Below, piece after piece: positions 28,918-36,123 of a stretch of DNA of 64,000 nt. The stretch is from a virus. Taxonomy: Duplodnaviria > Caudoviricetes. The translations under genes and the position numbers were made by a program. Within the stretch, counting starts at the first letter, position 1, and each line of letters begins with the position of its first letter. The stretch spans positions 4,204-68,203 of IMG/VR virus record IMGVR_UViG_2630968963_000002, one strand, 5' to 3'. The notes beneath the pieces are model-generated. The model saw only the letters and a program-made list of their open reading frames with translations, made no database searches and was not told the origin of the DNA.

Positions 28918-29319
28918 ATGTTTGGAGATAGATTAAAATTATTAAGAAAAAATGGTAACTATACACAAAAAGAACTTGGAGAAAAATTAAATGTATCTGG
29001 TAGGGTTATTGGATACTATGAGTCAAATGAGAGATTTCCAGATAAAGAAACTCTTACAAGACTAGCTGATTTTTTTGAGGTATCTGTCGATTATCTTCTT
29101 GGTAGAACTGATATAAGAAACAATATTAAAGATAATAAAATTGATATAAATAAAAATGAAAAAGATAATGACATAGAAAAGATTATAGATGAACTAATGG
29201 AACAAAAAGGTCTTATGTTATGTGGTGAGCCTATGAGTGAAGAAGATATGTTTTTACTTAGAAACTCTATAAGAAGTACAATTGAACTGGCTAAGACAAT
29301 GAAGAGTAATAAGAAGTAA
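28918..29319 (+). CDS. CI/ImmR-like repressor
   Basis: N-terminal XRE HTH; VSVDYLLGRT. Confidence 0.92.
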   Translation: MFGDRLKLLRKNGNYTQKELGEKLNVSGRVIGYYESNERFPDKETLTRLADFFEVSVDYLLGRTDIRNNIKDNKIDINKNEKDNDIEKIIDELMEQKGLMLCGEPMSEEDMFLLRNSIRSTIELAKTMKSNKK

Positions 29320-29323
29320 ATAG

Positions 29324-29779
29324 GTGATTATTGTGGGAAGAATTAAGGGAATAGTTATTAACTTAATAAAAAAATATAACACATCAAATGTATATGAACT
29401 CTGCGACCATTTAAATATAACTATAAAAAGAGATAAATTAGGAAGTATAAAAGGGTACTTTTTAAATGTTTATAATGATATGTTTATTATTTTAAATGAA
29501 AATATTAAAGAATGGGAAGAGCCTATAGTCATTGCACATGAACTTGGGCATATTCTACTACATAAGCATTCTAATATCTGTTTCTTAAAAAATTATACAT
29601 TTTGTATTACAGATAAATATGAGAATGAAGCAAATGAATTTGCTGCTCATCTATTAATAGACGATAAAGATCTAGATACTTTTTCTTCTGGCTATGAATA
29701 CGTAACTATAGAACAATTAAGCAAACACTTTTGTGTTCCTCAAGAATTTATTATGTATAAGATGAGAGAGTTGTTTTAG
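29324..29779 (+). CDS. ImmA/IrrE-family metallopeptidase
   Basis: AHELGH...ENEANEFAA. Confidence 0.92.
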   Translation: MIIVGRIKGIVINLIKKYNTSNVYELCDHLNITIKRDKLGSIKGYFLNVYNDMFIILNENIKEWEEPIVIAHELGHILLHKHSNICFLKNYTFCITDKYENEANEFAAHLLIDDKDLDTFSSGYEYVTIEQLSKHFCVPQEFIMYKMRELF

Positions 29780-30148: not shown

Positions 30149-31429
30149 ATGCTTTTAAAAATAAAAAACTTTGCTAAAATACAGAATGCAGAAGTGAAAA
30201 TAGATGGCATAACTGTTATTGCAGGTGAAAATAATACAGGTAAAAGCACAATAGGAAAAATATTGTATTCTATGTATGCTAGTTATTACAATATTGAAGA
30301 AAAAATTTATTCAGAAAAAAAAGATCTTATAATATCTAAGCTATTCAAATATGTTGTTAATTTGGATGAAGATCTTAATAGTTTAAATAATAATATAACT
30401 TTATGTAGATCTATTGCTGAAAAAATAATAAATAATTATGAAAATATATCTAATATTAATAAATTTGTTTCTGATCTTATGTCTAAAGATTTTAAAATAA
30501 ATTTAGATGACTCAGATTTTGATAAAATAATCCTTGATATACAAGAAGTGTTAGATATAAAAAATGATATCGTTGAGTTTACTATAGTTGAAGATATTTT
30601 TAATTCTGAATTTAATTCTCAGATTAATCATACAAACTTTAAGGATAAAAAAGCTACTGTAGAATTAAATATAAAAGATAAATCTTTATATTTTGTATTT
30701 AAAAATAATGAAATTGAAAACATTAAAAGAACAATAAACTTATTTGTGAACCCTATTTATATTGATAATCCTTTTATGTTAGATGAATTATCTAATAAAA
30801 AAATAAATCCTTTTAAAGCCGTTCATCATAAAGAAGATTTTTCTAATAAATTAGAAAACCGTAATTCAAATAATAATTTGATAAACCAAACATTAACTAA
30901 ATCAAGGCTTTCTAAAATTATTAGTAAGTTAAATAGCGTTACAAATGGATCTTTTTCTGATATAGATGGTGAATTAAAATTTAATATTACAGGATTAAAT
31001 GAACCTTTAAGTCTTACAAATTTATCAAATGGTTTAAAAACTTTTGTTATAATAAAAAGATTACTGGAAAATGGTTATTTGGAAGAAAATGGACTTTTAA
31101 TACTTGATGAGCCTGAAATACACTTACATCCAGATTGGCAACTTATTTTAGCTGAAATAATTGTTTTATTAAATGAAGAATTTAGCATCAATATTATTGT
31201 AAATACACATAGTCCGTATTTTTTAAATGCAATTGAAGTATTTTCAACTAAGTATAAAGTATCAAATAAGTGTAATTACTATTTAGCAGAATTAGACAAA
31301 GATGATAATACTGTTTCTCATATAGCTGATGTTACAAATGAAACTAGTTATATTTATGATAAACTAGCTTCTCCATTACAAAAATTAGAGAAATTATTTT
31401 ATGAAATTGGTGAAAATAATGAGTTCTAA
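30149..31429 (+). CDS. ABC/AAA_15-21-like ATPase, putative defence component
   Basis: Walker A GENNTGKS, signature LSNG, Walker B LILDEPEIHLHP, H-loop NTHSPY. Confidence 0.9.
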   Translation: MLLKIKNFAKIQNAEVKIDGITVIAGENNTGKSTIGKILYSMYASYYNIEEKIYSEKKDLIISKLFKYVVNLDEDLNSLNNNITLCRSIAEKIINNYENISNINKFVSDLMSKDFKINLDDSDFDKIILDIQEVLDIKNDIVEFTIVEDIFNSEFNSQINHTNFKDKKATVELNIKDKSLYFVFKNNEIENIKRTINLFVNPIYIDNPFMLDELSNKKINPFKAVHHKEDFSNKLENRNSNNNLINQTLTKSRLSKIISKLNSVTNGSFSDIDGELKFNITGLNEPLSLTNLSNGLKTFVIIKRLLENGYLEENGLLILDEPEIHLHPDWQLILAEIIVLLNEEFSINIIVNTHSPYFLNAIEVFSTKYKVSNKCNYYLAELDKDDNTVSHIADVTNETSYIYDKLASPLQKLEKLFYEIGENNEF

Positions 31430-32048
31430 TTATTTAATAAGTTCTGGATGTCAATTTAGAGAAACTTTATCTGAAACTTCTAAAGATACTGCTAATAATG
31501 AATATATGACTAACTCTAATATGAATGTTATCAACTTTGATAGCTACAAAGAATTTTATATAAACAAATTAAATTTACCTATAATTTATGATTCTAGAAA
31601 TACCCCTCAAAAAAGAGGTATTAAATCTAATGATGCATTATTTATTAATAATGATGAAATTTATTTTATAGAATTTAAAAATGGTTCAATCAATGATTCT
31701 AATAATGGCCCATTTAGTTTACATACTAAGTTATATGATAGTTTACTTATTCTATTAGATACGATAGATGAAAATATTTCATTTTCAAGAAAAAATATTA
31801 AATATATATTAGTATTCAATGAAACTAAAAAACATAAAGCAAAATCTTTTCGTAGTAACTCTTTGAACGCAATTTCTAGTAGATTAGCTGATTTATCCAA
31901 TAAAGAGATTATTCATTTTGATTTACATAAATTTAAAGATATATATTTAAATGAAGTACATACATATACAAAATCTCAATTTGAAAGGAATTTTGTAAGA
32001 AGATTCCAAAATATAGATATGTTTAATCAGTTAGCTGTAGAAGTATAA
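31419..32048 (+). CDS. Putative PD-(D/E)xK nuclease coupled to the ATPase
   Basis: KSNDAL...YFIEFKNG; start MSSNY overlaps the ATPase stop. Confidence 0.7.
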   Translation: MSSNYLISSGCQFRETLSETSKDTANNEYMTNSNMNVINFDSYKEFYINKLNLPIIYDSRNTPQKRGIKSNDALFINNDEIYFIEFKNGSINDSNNGPFSLHTKLYDSLLILLDTIDENISFSRKNIKYILVFNETKKHKAKSFRSNSLNAISSRLADLSNKEIIHFDLHKFKDIYLNEVHTYTKSQFERNFVRRFQNIDMFNQLAVEV

Positions 32049-32148: not shown

Positions 32149-32220
32149 TTTTATAAAGTATAACTTTTATTTTAACTATATTTTATAAATGATATAATTA
32201 TCTTGAAAGGTGGTTTTATA

Positions 32221-33807
32221 ATGATTGCTGCAATATACTCAAGAAAAAGTAAATTCACTGGAAAAGGTGAGTCAATAGAAAATCAAATTCAACTTTGTAT
32301 GGACTATGCTAAAAATATAGGCATTACTGAATTTTTAGTATATGAAGATGAAGGTTTTAGTGGAGGATCTACAGATAGACCTAAGTTTCAAGATATGTTA
32401 GCTGATGCTAAAGATAAGAAGTTCGATTGTTTAATCTGTTATAGATTAGATAGAATTTCAAGAAATGTATCTGACTTCTCTGCTCTTATAGAAGAGTTAA
32501 ATAAATTAGGTGTATCTTTTATATCAATAAAAGAACAGTTTGACACGTCTACTCCAATGGGACGTGCTATGATGTATATTTCTTCTGTCTTTGCACAATT
32601 AGAAAGAGAAACTATAGCTGAACGTGTCAAAGATAATATGTATGAATTAGCACGTACAGGAAGATGGCTTGGAGGAAATACTCCTACTGGATTTACATCA
32701 GAAAAAATAACTTATTTTGATGAAAGTATGAACCAAAGGTCAATGTGGAAGTTAAAGGTTGATAAAGAAGAAATGAAGTTAGTAGAACTTATATACTCTA
32801 AATATGAGGAATTAAAGTCACTATCTCAAGTTGAAAAATACTTCTTATCTTCTAATCATAAAGGTAAAAATAATGGTAATTTAGATAAATCAACACTTCA
32901 ATCTATACTTAGAAATCCTTGCTATGCTAAGTCTAGTGAAGAGGTTATAAAATACTTATCAAATAATGGTATGGATGTAGTTGGTAGTCCTGATAACTCT
33001 CATGGATTTTTAACTTATGCAAAACAATCAAATACTCCTATAGTTTCAGTTGCAAAACATAAAGGAATTATAGATTCTGATAGATGGTTTTACATTCAAA
33101 AAATATTAGACTCAAACAAATCTAAAGCTCCAAGAGTAGTTTCTGGAAGTAATGTTGCTCTTTTAACTGGACTATTAAAATGTAGATGTGGAAGTACAAT
33201 GAGAGTAAATTATGGATCTAAAAGAAAAGATGGTACAAGAGGTCATTATTATATATGCGCTAAGAAAAACACAAAAGGTTTAGTAGCATGTGATAATAAA
33301 AATATAAATGGTGAACAATTAGAAGAAGTAGTAATTGAACAAATAAAGAATGTAAATGAAAATAATATTTTTAATAAATTTGAAGAATCTAAAAAAGCAA
33401 CATTAGAAAAAAATAAAAATATTAAATCTGAGAAAAAAATAATTAATAAGAAAATAGAAGATGCTAATTCAGCTATAGAAAATTTAGTTAAACAGCTGTC
33501 ACTAAATACAGATAGTGTTGCATCTAAATATATAATCTCTGAAATTGAAAAATTAAATCAAGAACTTGAAAGTTTAAATAATAAACTTATTAAATTAGAT
33601 AATTTAAGCAAGGAAATTGATTCTATTGATATAAACTTAAATATAATATCAGATGCTTTTATTAAATTTAGAAATGAATTTGATAACGCTGATTTAAATA
33701 CTAAAAGATTTTTACTATCTAGTATAATCGATGAAATTATTTGGGATGGTGATACTGGTAATATAAATGTGTGTTATTTAGGTACTAAAAAAAAAGCACT
33801 AATATAG
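32221..33807 (+). CDS. Large serine integrase of prophage 1
   Basis: AIYSRKS catalytic Ser, LDRISRN, recombinase domain, zinc ribbon LLKCRCG..YYIC..C, coiled coil; start MIAAI by AAAGGTGG SD. Confidence 0.96.
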   Translation: MIAAIYSRKSKFTGKGESIENQIQLCMDYAKNIGITEFLVYEDEGFSGGSTDRPKFQDMLADAKDKKFDCLICYRLDRISRNVSDFSALIEELNKLGVSFISIKEQFDTSTPMGRAMMYISSVFAQLERETIAERVKDNMYELARTGRWLGGNTPTGFTSEKITYFDESMNQRSMWKLKVDKEEMKLVELIYSKYEELKSLSQVEKYFLSSNHKGKNNGNLDKSTLQSILRNPCYAKSSEEVIKYLSNNGMDVVGSPDNSHGFLTYAKQSNTPIVSVAKHKGIIDSDRWFYIQKILDSNKSKAPRVVSGSNVALLTGLLKCRCGSTMRVNYGSKRKDGTRGHYYICAKKNTKGLVACDNKNINGEQLEEVVIEQIKNVNENNIFNKFEESKKATLEKNKNIKSEKKIINKKIEDANSAIENLVKQLSLNTDSVASKYIISEIEKLNQELESLNNKLIKLDNLSKEIDSIDINLNIISDAFIKFRNEFDNADLNTKRFLLSSIIDEIIWDGDTGNINVCYLGTKKKALI

Positions 33808-33862
33808 AAAATATAGCTACTGCAACTGATTCAGAGTTTTTAAAAACATTGTATTTTAGTTG

Positions 33863-34088
33863 TTGTAGCTTCCGTATGCCCAACATAAAATCCTGATTTT
33901 TCTCCTCCAACAAATAAGTTTTTCATATTTTCCGCTCTCATATAATTATCCCTTGGAGATACTGCCATATATCTGATTGAGTTTCCCTTTCCTCCACTAT
34001 ATGGATCTACTATACAAGCAGTTTCAAAACCAGATACACTTCTTAATTTTTCCAGATTGAAGAAAGGTGACATTAATTTTGCATGTGC
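33863..34088 (-). pseudogene. Internal fragment of a host GidA/TrmFO-like FAD-dependent oxidoreductase gene between two att junctions
   Basis: In-frame HAKLMSPFF...DPYSGGKGNSIRY...NLFVGGEKSGFYVGHTEA resembles the GidA-family LFxAG(Q/E)xxGxxG(Y/H)xEA flavin motif; similarity stops abruptly at both ends. Boundaries uncertain by about 5 bp. Confidence 0.8.
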
Positions 34089-34403
34089 TGTGTTAATAGT
34101 ATTGCGACACTTAAACCAATACGTTTTAAATTGTATGGAGATAAAACTTATCGTTTATATAATTATAGCAAAGATGATACTCTTTCAGAAATGATAAAAA
34201 AATATAGATTAAATAATAATTTATCTTATAAAGAACTTGGTGAACTTGTAAACTGTTCCCAAGGCCATTTATGGATGATTGAACATAAAGATAGAGACTA
34301 TCCTCAATCAAAGGTATTAATCAAAAAAATATTAAAATTAGTAAGAAAAGATTTTATACTATGCATAGTAGTAGGAAATATAATTAAGTTTATTTTTACA
34401 TAA
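34083..34403 (+). CDS. XRE-HTH reading frame open from the att junction; true start unclear
   Basis: IKKYRLNNNLSYKELGELVNCSQGHLWMIE HTH; first ATG lies in the host fragment and ATG 34191 lacks an SD. Confidence 0.6.
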   Translation: MCCVNSIATLKPIRFKLYGDKTYRLYNYSKDDTLSEMIKKYRLNNNLSYKELGELVNCSQGHLWMIEHKDRDYPQSKVLIKKILKLVRKDFILCIVVGNIIKFIFT

Positions 34404-35232: not shown

Positions 35233-36123
35233 TTATTTTTCTACAAATACATATTTTTTATTTAAAGATAACCATCCTTTACGATATGGAGCATACCCCC
35301 ATTTTCCATTTTTAGATACTTTAGTAATTTTATACCTCACACCCTTTGGAGCTGTATGTAATATATCAACTTCAGTTGTTGGTGACTTTCTTATATTAAG
35401 CTTTCCTTTTGTAATTACATAATAAGGAACTTTATTTGTTATATACTCATTAGTTATTGGTTTATTAAATCCATTTAATCCTTTTGATTTTATAAGAGAT
35501 GTATAATCTACATAACAATAGTTTTGGTCAGTACTTGAAGAAGGTATTCCATTTATTTTTTTATTTCTAAGCAGATTTGTCTCTCCTCCAAACTGCCACA
35601 TCATTAGATCCTTTTCTTTGTAACCACATTCTTTTGCATAATGAGCTATCCATTTATCATACTTAGAAAGTTCACTTTCAATAAGATGATCTCTTAATAT
35701 ATATTTACCTGAATATATAGCTACATAATAGCCAGCATCTTCTACAACCTTAGCCATAGCTTTTACTGCATCTGTTAGCTGTCTTTTTGATGTTTTCTTT
35801 AATACTTCTGTATCTTCTATATCCAAGAATATTGGATATTCAAACTTTTTTCCTTTAAGTAAATCTACTATAAATTTACCCTCTGCTTTACCTTCTGCAA
35901 CAGTAGCACATCTACTATAGTAATAAGCTCCTATAGGCATTCCTATAGCTTTTGCCTGTTTATAATATTCTTCAAACTTAACATCCTTTGCCATTGTTTT
36001 ACTAGAAGATAAACTAGTTCTTCCAGCTCTTAATATTGCAAATTTTACACCTTCAGATTTTACTTTACTCCAGTTAATAGTTCCATTGTGATAGCTAACA
36101 TCAATTCCAAATATTTTTTCCAT
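35233..36123 (-). CDS. Endolysin, GH25 muramidase plus SH3b
   Basis: GIDVSYHNG, GAYYY, PIFLDIED, MWQF; C-terminal LNIRKSP..GWL. Confidence 0.95.
   Translation of the reverse strand: MEKIFGIDVSYHNGTINWSKVKSEGVKFAILRAGRTSLSSSKTMAKDVKFEEYYKQAKAIGMPIGAYYYSRCATVAEGKAEGKFIVDLLKGKKFEYPIFLDIEDTEVLKKTSKRQLTDAVKAMAKVVEDAGYYVAIYSGKYILRDHLIESELSKYDKWIAHYAKECGYKEKDLMMWQFGGETNLLRNKKINGIPSSSTDQNYCYVDYTSLIKSKGLNGFNKPITNEYITNKVPYYVITKGKLNIRKSPTTEVDILHTAPKGVRYKITKVSKNGKWGYAPYRKGWLSLNKKYVFVEK

Follow-up and report, generated by a model that had tools for sequence, protein, structure and literature searches.

The locus described here raises the question of whether a single phage integrase gene can specify two proteins, depending on whether the phage genome is circular or integrated. 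The stretch of DNA analyzed, hereafter the window, comprises 64,000 nucleotides (nt), namely bases 4204-68203 of a 68,203-base IMG/VR provirus record, and contains two tailed prophages in tandem, with the structural genes of both on the minus strand. The subject is the large serine integrase (Int) of prophage 1, the gene for which closes with nine consecutive adenines (A9) shortly before the junction with host DNA. The initial annotation had proposed that frameshifting or slippage on this run extends the integrase by a tail that depends on the recombination state. The sequence comparisons given below provide strong comparative support for a product of this kind, in which the integrase would be joined to a helix-turn-helix (HTH) module across the intact phage attachment site (attP). 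The features on which the argument rests are the following (window coordinates unless prefixed G000, the genome that holds the window; aa, amino acids).

32221..33807, plus strand: large serine integrase of prophage 1, 528 aa from the ATG at 32221, ending in ...GTKKKALI and a stop codon
33787..33795, plus strand: A9 run, the proposed slippage site, AAA AAA AAA, encoding K523-K525
33795..33896, plus strand: -1 frame extension in the prophage form, 33 aa, STNIENIATATDSEFLKTLYFSCCSFRMPNIKS, closed by a TGA inside host DNA
33843..33872, plus strand: phage half of attR, with the P arm at 33843-33867 and the shared core GCTTC at 33868-33872
33873..34085, minus strand: fragment of a host gene for an FAD-dependent oxidoreductase (GidA-like), 213 nt between the prophages, Pfam GIDA 3.3e-06, profile positions 316-373
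G000:C1:307-744, 3.5-3.9 kb left of the window: HTH open reading frame (ORF) of 145 aa, carrying two XRE-type HTH domains, at the prophage end opposite to int

The integrase contained the Pfam domains Resolvase (PF00239, 6e-40, residues 9-155), Recombinase (PF07508, 1.1e-11), and Zn_ribbon_recom (PF13408, 1.6e-15), i.e., the large serine recombinase order of a resolvase catalytic domain, a recombinase domain, and a zinc ribbon, and it matched PHROG 95 integrase (8e-118). An alternative TTG start at 32203 was present in the ORF list; the start was set at 32221 because the closest homologues (527-528 aa) begin with MIAAIYSRK. The 3' end of the gene at 33781-33807 reads GGT ACT AAA AAA AAA GCA CTA ATA TAG, exactly as initially described. 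Apart from this A9, the 64-kb window has no run of at least nine A or T, and the whole 68.2-kb record holds one A run of at least nine when both strands are counted. Translation of 33795-33896 in the -1 frame gave STNIENIATATDSEFLKTLYFSCCSFRMPNIKS followed by a stop codon, with the core GCTTC inside it, so that the frame is indeed open across the junction; the latter, initially put near 33860, was located at the core at 33868-33872. Of the extension, the first 26 codons (to 33872) lie in phage DNA; in a long form, they would serve as the linker.

Both prophage junctions were resolved. On the left, the host sequence ...CAAATT-GCTTC-TGCAACAGCAACCAAAATACAATG... places the core at C1:281-285, and on the right, ...AAAACATTGTATTTTAGTTGTTGTA-GCTTC-CGTATGCCC...-host places it at 33868-33872. 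The 27 nt at 33843-33869 match G000:C1:287-313 (the P' arm) in inverted orientation, and 23 of the 27 positions of the attP palindrome are symmetric around a centre between TT and CT. An imperfect inverted repeat, a short non-palindromic centre, and only GCTTC in common with the bacterial site (attB) fit a large serine integrase, and the phage halves at the two prophage ends are the imperfectly symmetric P and P' arms of its attP. The 3' part of the GidA-like host gene lies at G000:C1:1-285, and on the 33873 side the gene is uninterrupted in the related loci L005 and L095. Contigs of other organisms that carry the uninterrupted host site diverge from the window at 33866/33868. No curated family was found in NCBIfam for the host gene or the HTH ORF.

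The attP of the circular genome was reconstructed by script, with the left end (G000:C1:286...) placed directly behind the right end (window ...33872). The -1 frame read stop-free from the run into the HTH ORF (...KKK-STNIENIATATDSEFLKTLYFSCCSF-CNSNQNT-MFSFNFYETLYK...DL and a stop codon), in frame with C1:307-744, whereas frames 0 and +1 over the same stretch held 3 and 4 stops, respectively. The predicted join of the -1 frame to an HTH ORF across attP was thus borne out, as was, at the level of the reading frame, the dependence of the predicted tail on the recombination state: the -1 tail is 33 aa long in the prophage, and the HTH ORF is reached in the reconstructed attP. No attP-form contig was present among the pieces listed from four public DNA runs. 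The Pfam-type matches of the HTH ORF were phage repressors, and the best sequence matches of the module in PDB were ImmR of ICEBs1, SinR, and P22 C2. Over the 145 codons of the HTH ORF, G000 and its relative G110 differ by 13 synonymous and 15 non-synonymous changes; judged by these, the ORF is under purifying selection. The predicted long product has ~703 aa (Int residues 1-525, a 33-aa linker, and the 145-aa HTH module).

In the proposed mechanism, RNA polymerase would slip on A9, so that some int mRNAs would carry A10 (A8 in one lineage). Translation of a slipped mRNA would bypass the int stop codon four codons on, read on in the -1 frame over the whole of attP (P arm, core, and P' arm), and then enter the ORF with the two XRE-type HTH domains. 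The long product of ~703 aa would be possible only with an intact attP, i.e., after infection or after excision. In the prophage, a slip would add only 33 aa, terminated within host DNA, and the HTH ORF would be stranded without a promoter or a ribosome-binding site. Recoding of either kind, by polymerase slippage or by ribosomal frameshifting, is probable; the narrower proposal that programmed slippage of RNA polymerase on A9 makes Int-HTH only from the circular genome has about an even chance of being correct.

The run and the frame in related prophages

The ten closest protein clusters (65-94% identity, 527-528 aa, at least 88 member sequences) all end in KKK followed by two to three variable residues and a stop codon, and K523-K525 were invariant in 11 of 11 aligned close homologues, in which the flanking residues vary. 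L005, a Terrisporobacter metagenome-assembled genome (87% identity), and L095, which is the same as G110 (91%), have exactly A9, an open -1 frame, and a linker equal in length to that of the window. In contigs from four other samples (X7 and X13 cover the run), no insertion or deletion was found at the run. A homopolymer error of sequencing or assembly, which had been named as a danger to the initial proposal, was therefore rejected, since ten independent protein clusters and two genomes share the frame. With a C-terminal alignment lacking KKK as query, IMG/VR and JGI metagenomes yielded only relatives of 33-43% identity.

A wider survey used queries without the run and gave 91 distinct integrase loci (41-91% identity). 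Within 60 nt of the int stop codon, 22 of the 91 had exactly A9, four had A8, five had A7, and none had ten or more, so that the conservation sought for the run was found, and in two codon phases. Most runs are in phase 0 (..KKK and stop), while those of L007, L020, and L096, as well as that of L097, which the survey key counted with L007, are in phase 2 (GTA AAA AAA AAT, i.e., VKKN and stop); it is therefore the length of nine adenines that is conserved, not the three lysines. The int stop codon lies 0-9 nt past the run in 22/22 A9 loci, at distance 0 in 13 of them.

A lysine-rich end in an AT-rich genome, or the relic of a decaying fusion with an accidentally open -1 frame, would need no function for the run. 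The genome of the window has a GC content of 25-30%, AAA is the expected lysine codon, and in this integrase family, with or without a run, the shifted frame often stays open well past the stop. On the other hand, about 0.09 A9 runs are expected by chance in 91 windows of 66 nt and 22 were observed (~240-fold enrichment), and over 117 related loci (1.38 Mb, both strands) 24 A runs of at least nine lie at integrase 3' ends and 21 elsewhere. Furthermore, the length is exactly nine in at least eight lineages with different attB sites, and neither the frame continuity in 10/10 prophages described below nor the selection on the HTH ORF is expected of an accident. Chance or decay is thus very unlikely.

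Homopolymer tracts of nine are hypermutable, and replication slippage could in principle toggle the DNA itself between A9 (unfused) and A10 (fused) in subpopulations. Four relatives do have A8. By eye, however, the A8 runs of L040 and L083 look like base substitutions (A8C) and not like changes of frame, while that of L014 looks like a one-base loss. No A10 or longer run occurred among the 31 relatives with a run of at least seven, all ten close clusters, with their at least 88 sequences, are in the unfused frame, and the contigs of the four other samples are again without a change in the run. Phase variation at the DNA level is therefore very unlikely.

A profile of the two-HTH ORF was used to find its counterparts in the genomes of relatives. 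In eleven genomes with both genes on one contig, the counterpart and the integrase were 24-45 kb apart and shared a strand; in G099 and G090, the counterpart was on a separate contig. The core was placed blind to frame by arm symmetry (palindrome) and the length of the shared core, and the reconstructed attB, which yields host ORFs spanning the junction, served as a check on placement. Placement by the longest shared direct repeat alone was unreliable (right in 3/10) and was rejected. The A9 prophages with both ends, their cores, and the frame that leads into the HTH domain were as follows.

G000: core GCTTC, frame -1
G110: core GCTTCTG, frame -1
G113: core AGCTTC, frame -1
G095: core GCTTC, frame -1
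G099: core GCTTC, frame -1
G116: core CATGCATGA, frame -1
G119: core ACA, frame -1
G120: core ACAAGGTGC, frame -1
G123: core TTAGCACCT, frame -1
G121: core AAATGC, frame +1

The required shifted frame was stop-free from the run to the HTH domain in 10/10 of these prophages, which represent at least five attB sites, and the opposite shifted frame held 1-4 stops in the nine that were consistently placed (G123 left out). A stop codon soon after attP, which had been named as a result that would speak against the initial proposal, was found in none of the ten. In the run-less G089, G084, and G090, the integrase joins the HTH ORF in frame 0 (3/3). The offset is thus non-zero with the run in 10/10 and zero without it in 3/3, representing ~8 and ~2 independent lineages, respectively.

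Deposited phages and proteins extend this picture. Both A9 phages described here have cultivable, non-pathogenic hosts, Terrisporobacter petrolearius for TPELB_ph1 and Clostridium saccharoperbutylacetonicum for HM T. The integrase of Terrisporobacter phage TPELB_ph1 ends in FFGSKKKV and a stop codon with A9, and in its -1 frame no stop occurs for 127 codons, until the annotated CDS0027 ends. The integrase of Clostridium phage HM T, a circular record, ends in KPFCTNKKKGAL and a stop codon, also with A9; its +1 frame has no stop for 108 codons, crosses the record origin, and takes in an unannotated HTH ORF that lacks a start codon at its beginning. In the HM T record (L143, KU517658.1, 37738-38039, minus strand, with L140), ~490 nt at the end are unannotated and hold this HTH ORF, which has 99 codons. 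The 655-aa 'putative resolvase' of Clostridium perfringens phage vB_CpeS-CP51 contains Resolvase, Recombinase, and Zn ribbon domains followed by HTH_3 (residues 600-654), and its gene has no A run longer than six. Fifteen of the best 120 database matches to the integrase are 689-719 aa long with HTH domains; the sequences of five of these were inspected individually, and database proteins of 715-719 aa are direct fusions. P0017 (718 aa) and P0024 (546 aa, 981 members) are identical up to ...HFCSDCR and then diverge, as would be expected of the circular and the integrated form of one gene, and the IMG/VR loci L119 and L120 have the 546-aa form. The crossover core lies inside an open reading frame, with different C-termini encoded by the viral and prophage forms, in the -1 frame in the phage of the window and in frame 0 in G089, G084, G090, CP51, and P0017/P0024.

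Many free-standing HTH ORF calls (P0127, P0148, P0170, P0208, P0147, and P0173) have a translated P' arm as their first residues (MC..SIAT.., CSIQQRT..), and in some the frame continues upstream across the core and into the P arm (..NVMPSF-CSIQQ.., LQFVDTSI-CSSRQ..). Judging from these translated arms, such calls look as if they came from contigs of the circular form, with an open frame that extends upstream beyond any plausible start.

Mode of recoding and the case for a separate HTH gene

Polymerase slippage is favored over ribosomal frameshifting as the mode of recoding because the run length of nine is kept regardless of phase, because one lineage needs the opposite direction from the same run, because the clade of the window lacks a consistently placed stimulatory structure, and because the A9 of insertion sequence (IS) IS1447 of Clostridium thermocellum slips both ways (PMC6211511, in its available text). 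Slippage in both directions would fit the lineages that need an additional A as well as the one that needs the loss of an A. The run is also long enough for a slippage site (7-9 or more), its length is kept across phases, and the shifted frame leads into a selected coding region.

The same Int-linker-HTH product could instead be made by ribosomal frameshifting on A_AAA_AAA, aided by the adjacent stop codon. The heptamer A AAA AAA (X XXY YYZ) is present in both observed phases, a stop codon abuts the run in 13/22 A9 loci (a 'shifty stop' context), and a G-rich/C-rich inverted repeat surrounds the run in many relatives, with A9 enclosed in the hairpin loop in 10/23 loci by a strict test. However, a -1 heptamer does not supply the +1 shift that the HM T / G121 / L038 lineage needs, and no significant fold was found beside the run at the usual spacing of 5-9 nt in G000, L005, and L095 (z -0.4 to +0.4). 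In addition, the 5' arm of the hairpin is upstream of the run and would already be melted by the ribosome, and A9 is, in the available text of PMC6211511, experimentally a polymerase slippage site in a clostridium. Ribosomal frameshifting beside the stop codon is possible for the -1 lineages, and overall it is unlikely.

The hairpin deserves a description of its own. At the integrase ends of L007, L010, L012, L018, L020, L028, L077, L096, and L110, A9 forms a hairpin loop of -9 to -17 kcal/mol, with a G-rich arm (codons W-G-G, TGGGGAGG) and a complementary C-rich arm. The latter encodes the Pro-rich start of the shifted-frame linker (IAPPLP, IAPLLP, LAPRKG). As a general stimulator of recoding, a run-enclosing hairpin was rejected, because it is common in relatives and absent from the clade of the window.

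A different account dispenses with recoding: the HTH ORF would be a separate gene, expressed by re-initiation or from a non-canonical or Shine-Dalgarno-less start, and A9 would be kept for another reason, as a basic KKK tail, a hairpin loop, an A-rich translation enhancer, or a protein-binding site. An ATG heads the HTH ORF in G000 and G110, the run forms an ATGA stop/start overlap in L012 and L018, gene callers report standalone HTH ORFs of 140-172 aa, the linker has no amino-acid conservation, and a hairpin encloses the run in many relatives. This account leaves unexplained, in contrast, why the linker is stop-free in 10/10 while the other shifted frame is closed in nine, why the offset is never 0 with the run and always 0 without it (10/0 vs. 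0/3), and why G084, G121, and HM T have no ATG ahead of the HTH domain at all. Likewise, the run is kept in phase 2, where KKK is not encoded, and the hairpin is missing in the clade of G000.

The start signals of the HTH ORF bear on the same account. No Shine-Dalgarno motif was found in ...AGCAACCAAAATACA ahead of the ATG of G000 and G110 (G000 by eye), and a scan of three correctly placed attPs gave no such motif before any in-frame start. A search of the plus strand upstream of the HTH ORF in the prophage gave no promoter-like site, the counts of such sites being no higher than in shuffled sequences, which is weak evidence. From these scans and the missing ATGs, the HTH ORF seems unable to start by itself. 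Overall, an unrecoded, separate gene is rather unlikely.

Several observations weigh against fusion by slippage. In G000 and G110, the ATG of the HTH ORF lies 21 nt past the core, which would allow independent initiation. The linker evolves mostly non-synonymously (6 vs. 1, 12 vs. 2, and 9 vs. 3 non-synonymous vs. synonymous codon changes in three comparisons), and its openness and length alone look constrained; its second codon positions rarely changed (4/38 differences), which is a weak hint of coding. The clade of G000 has no stimulatory structure beside the run. The placement of the core in G123 is ambiguous, since the palindrome score alone picks another site, with stops, and the in-frame site is given by a 9-nt shared repeat and the combined score. 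According to the available text of the TPELB_ph1 paper, active prophage regions were extracted and rotated, and the junction of that record may be a computational join. In that text, the word 'integrase' occurs a single time, and 'attP' and 'frameshift' do not occur. Past the stop, the shifted frame of the prophage form stayed open for no longer than in run-less relatives (Mann-Whitney p = 0.24), and this length, being alike in A9 and run-less loci, was therefore not counted as support.

The mRNA across attP presents a further difficulty. The P and P' arms in G000 (window 33836-33872 joined to C1:286-328) fold at -29.0 kcal/mol, compared with -8.4 +/- 2.7 for shuffled sequences, and are followed by a U-rich stretch, UUUUCUUUU. 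The corresponding arm hairpin of TPELB_ph1 (L138:4117-4206) has -21.8 kcal/mol. Present in the circular form only, such a hairpin might terminate transcription, pause or impede the ribosome before the HTH module, or be a target of an RNase. Between int and the junction, a simple scan found no terminator-like site, which is weak evidence. When the HTH ORF or its alignment was used as the query, word-based searches yielded no useful match to a longer, fused protein, which is also weak evidence.

Genes around the integrase and the second prophage

The plus-strand lysogeny module at the right end of prophage 1 precedes the integrase and contains the following genes.

Starts at 28918, plus strand: HTH repressor
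Starts at 29324, plus strand: ImmA-like M78 peptidase
Starts at 30149, plus strand: AAA_21 ATPase
Between the ATPase and the integrase, plus strand: ORF of 215 aa

Between the ImmA-like peptidase and the integrase (30149-32048), the AAA_21/AAA_15 (AbiEii-like) ATPase of 426 aa is overlapped by the 215-aa ORF, which had no Pfam match. This stretch is very AT-rich (GC 0.20-0.23), and the two genes are a possible prophage-borne defence pair.

Prophage 2 is inserted in the same host oxidoreductase gene at another site, 213 nt beyond prophage 1. The features of its left end are as follows.

34081..34403, plus strand: left end of prophage 2, with the junction core at ~34081-34085 (GCATG), followed by the P' arm and an HTH-like ORF
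34083-34403, plus strand: HTH-like ORF starting with MCCVNSIATLKPIRF, with HTH_3/HTH_19 matches below cut-off

This ORF is the counterpart of the ORF that is read across attP in prophage 1, and the integrase of prophage 2 lies beyond the contig end. It resembles CDS0027 of TPELB_ph1 (MSSIDSIATLKPIRFKLYGDKTYRLYNY...), the -1 frame behind the A9 integrase end of that phage. Prophage 2 (33873-34403, 35233-64000) resembles TPELB_ph1 in this left-end ORF, and the P' arm ...AGTATTGCGACACTTAAACC is identical. The GH25 and SH3 endolysins of the tandem prophages (G000:C1:2234-3124 and window 35233-36123, 296 aa) are nearly identical, while the neighboring genes differ, which suggests a recent exchange of the lysis module between the two. 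A blastn search of INPHARED gave no close relative; the best match covered 40% of the query at 73% identity.

Related systems and the meaning of a two-form integrase

Programmed transcriptional slippage is also a property of Thermus thermophilus dnaX. A close parallel is IS1447 (IS3 family) of C. thermocellum, in which A9 slippage gives +1 and -1 products of ~16% each (PMC6211511, available text). As in the phage, nine adenines lie near the end of the upstream ORF and slippage joins it to a downstream ORF in another frame; unlike the ORFs of IS elements, which are always adjacent, the downstream ORF of the phage is adjacent in one recombination state only. Selection against accidental long A/T runs and the use of such runs by IS elements are the subject of PMC1088944, to judge from the part of it at hand.

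The integrase of phage Mx8 (IntP to IntX) also has its crossover site in the int frame, and integration gives it a new C-terminus, the prophage-form enzyme behaving differently (PMC6070905, available portion). The attP core is thus inside the integrase reading frame in both. In contrast, Mx8 Int is, in that portion, a tyrosine recombinase read in frame 0 without a slippery run, and its swapped tail is no separate DNA-binding module, whereas the integrase of the window is a large serine recombinase with a two-HTH domain as its excised-form tail, reached after a frame change (directly in CP51). In mycobacteriophages of clusters G, N, and P (BPs and others), attP lies in a repressor ORF cotranscribed with int, and integration flips the regulatory state (PMC9262239, as far as its accessible text goes). 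There, too, the viral and prophage forms of an HTH protein differ. In those phages, however, the truncated repressor loses a degradation tag, the integrase is a tyrosine enzyme, and no recoding is described in that text, whereas the HTH module in the present case would be part of an integrase fusion, and integration would shut off its expression completely. Engineered fusions, in which a flexible linker attaches a recombination directionality factor (RDF) to the C-terminal end of a large serine integrase, fix stoichiometry and control directionality (PMC12286644, available text); unlike these synthetic constructs with a known RDF, the present fusion would be natural and its partner an XRE/Cro-CI-type HTH module.

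The nearest protein is the CP51 resolvase, which has the same order of Resolvase, Recombinase, Zn ribbon, linker, and HTH_3, at 72.8% nucleotide identity over 28% of the query. CP51 has a continuous frame and no A run longer than six, whereas the integrase of the window needs a frame change. No paper on a CP51-type Int-HTH fusion was found, the paper on CP51 itself not having been looked for. In a full-text literature search, neither a serine integrase with a slippery run nor a fused integrase-HTH product read across attP was found to be described. The first two-thirds of the text of a 2016 recoding review contain none of 'integrase', 'serine recombinase', and 'attP', and the GeneTack survey, its supplements aside, contains neither 'recombinase' nor 'integrase' in its available text.

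A circular genome of the direct-fusion lineages can make no integrase other than Int-HTH, and the long form should therefore be able to carry out integration; from the prophage, only the short form can be made, and excision therefore should need no HTH module. The HTH module would thus be a product specific to the unintegrated state. It may report or control the recombination state, for example through additional DNA binding in integration at or near attP, autoregulation, or an input to the lysis-lysogeny decision, in line with the 'directionality or autoregulatory switch' hypothesized in the initial annotation. A bolder and tentative possibility is that this clostridial subfamily of serine integrases senses its own recombination state, with the long isoform coupling directionality to the lysis-lysogeny circuit. 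The fusion would then be direct in some lineages and made at a dose set by slippage in the A9 lineages, and integration would erase the signal. The long form might bind operators or the flanks of attP, driving integration and silencing early genes, or might block re-integration after excision. If this is true, it would constitute a second, serine-integrase version of integration-dependent immunity, with the enzyme ratio tuned by polymerase infidelity.

The directionality of large serine integrases is a central question for phage biology and genome engineering, and the accepted answer is a separate directionality factor. On the comparative evidence, the integrase gene of the window appears to encode two enzymes, with the tail set by the intactness of attP and the dose of the long form by the nine-adenine run. 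If true, this would add a natural integrase fusion to the known repertoire of control. It would also define a class of recoding sites that is invisible to gene callers, the HTH ORF being unannotated in HM T and a free small gene elsewhere, and it would account for the 'orphan' HTH ORF, devoid of a start signal, at the other end of these prophages.

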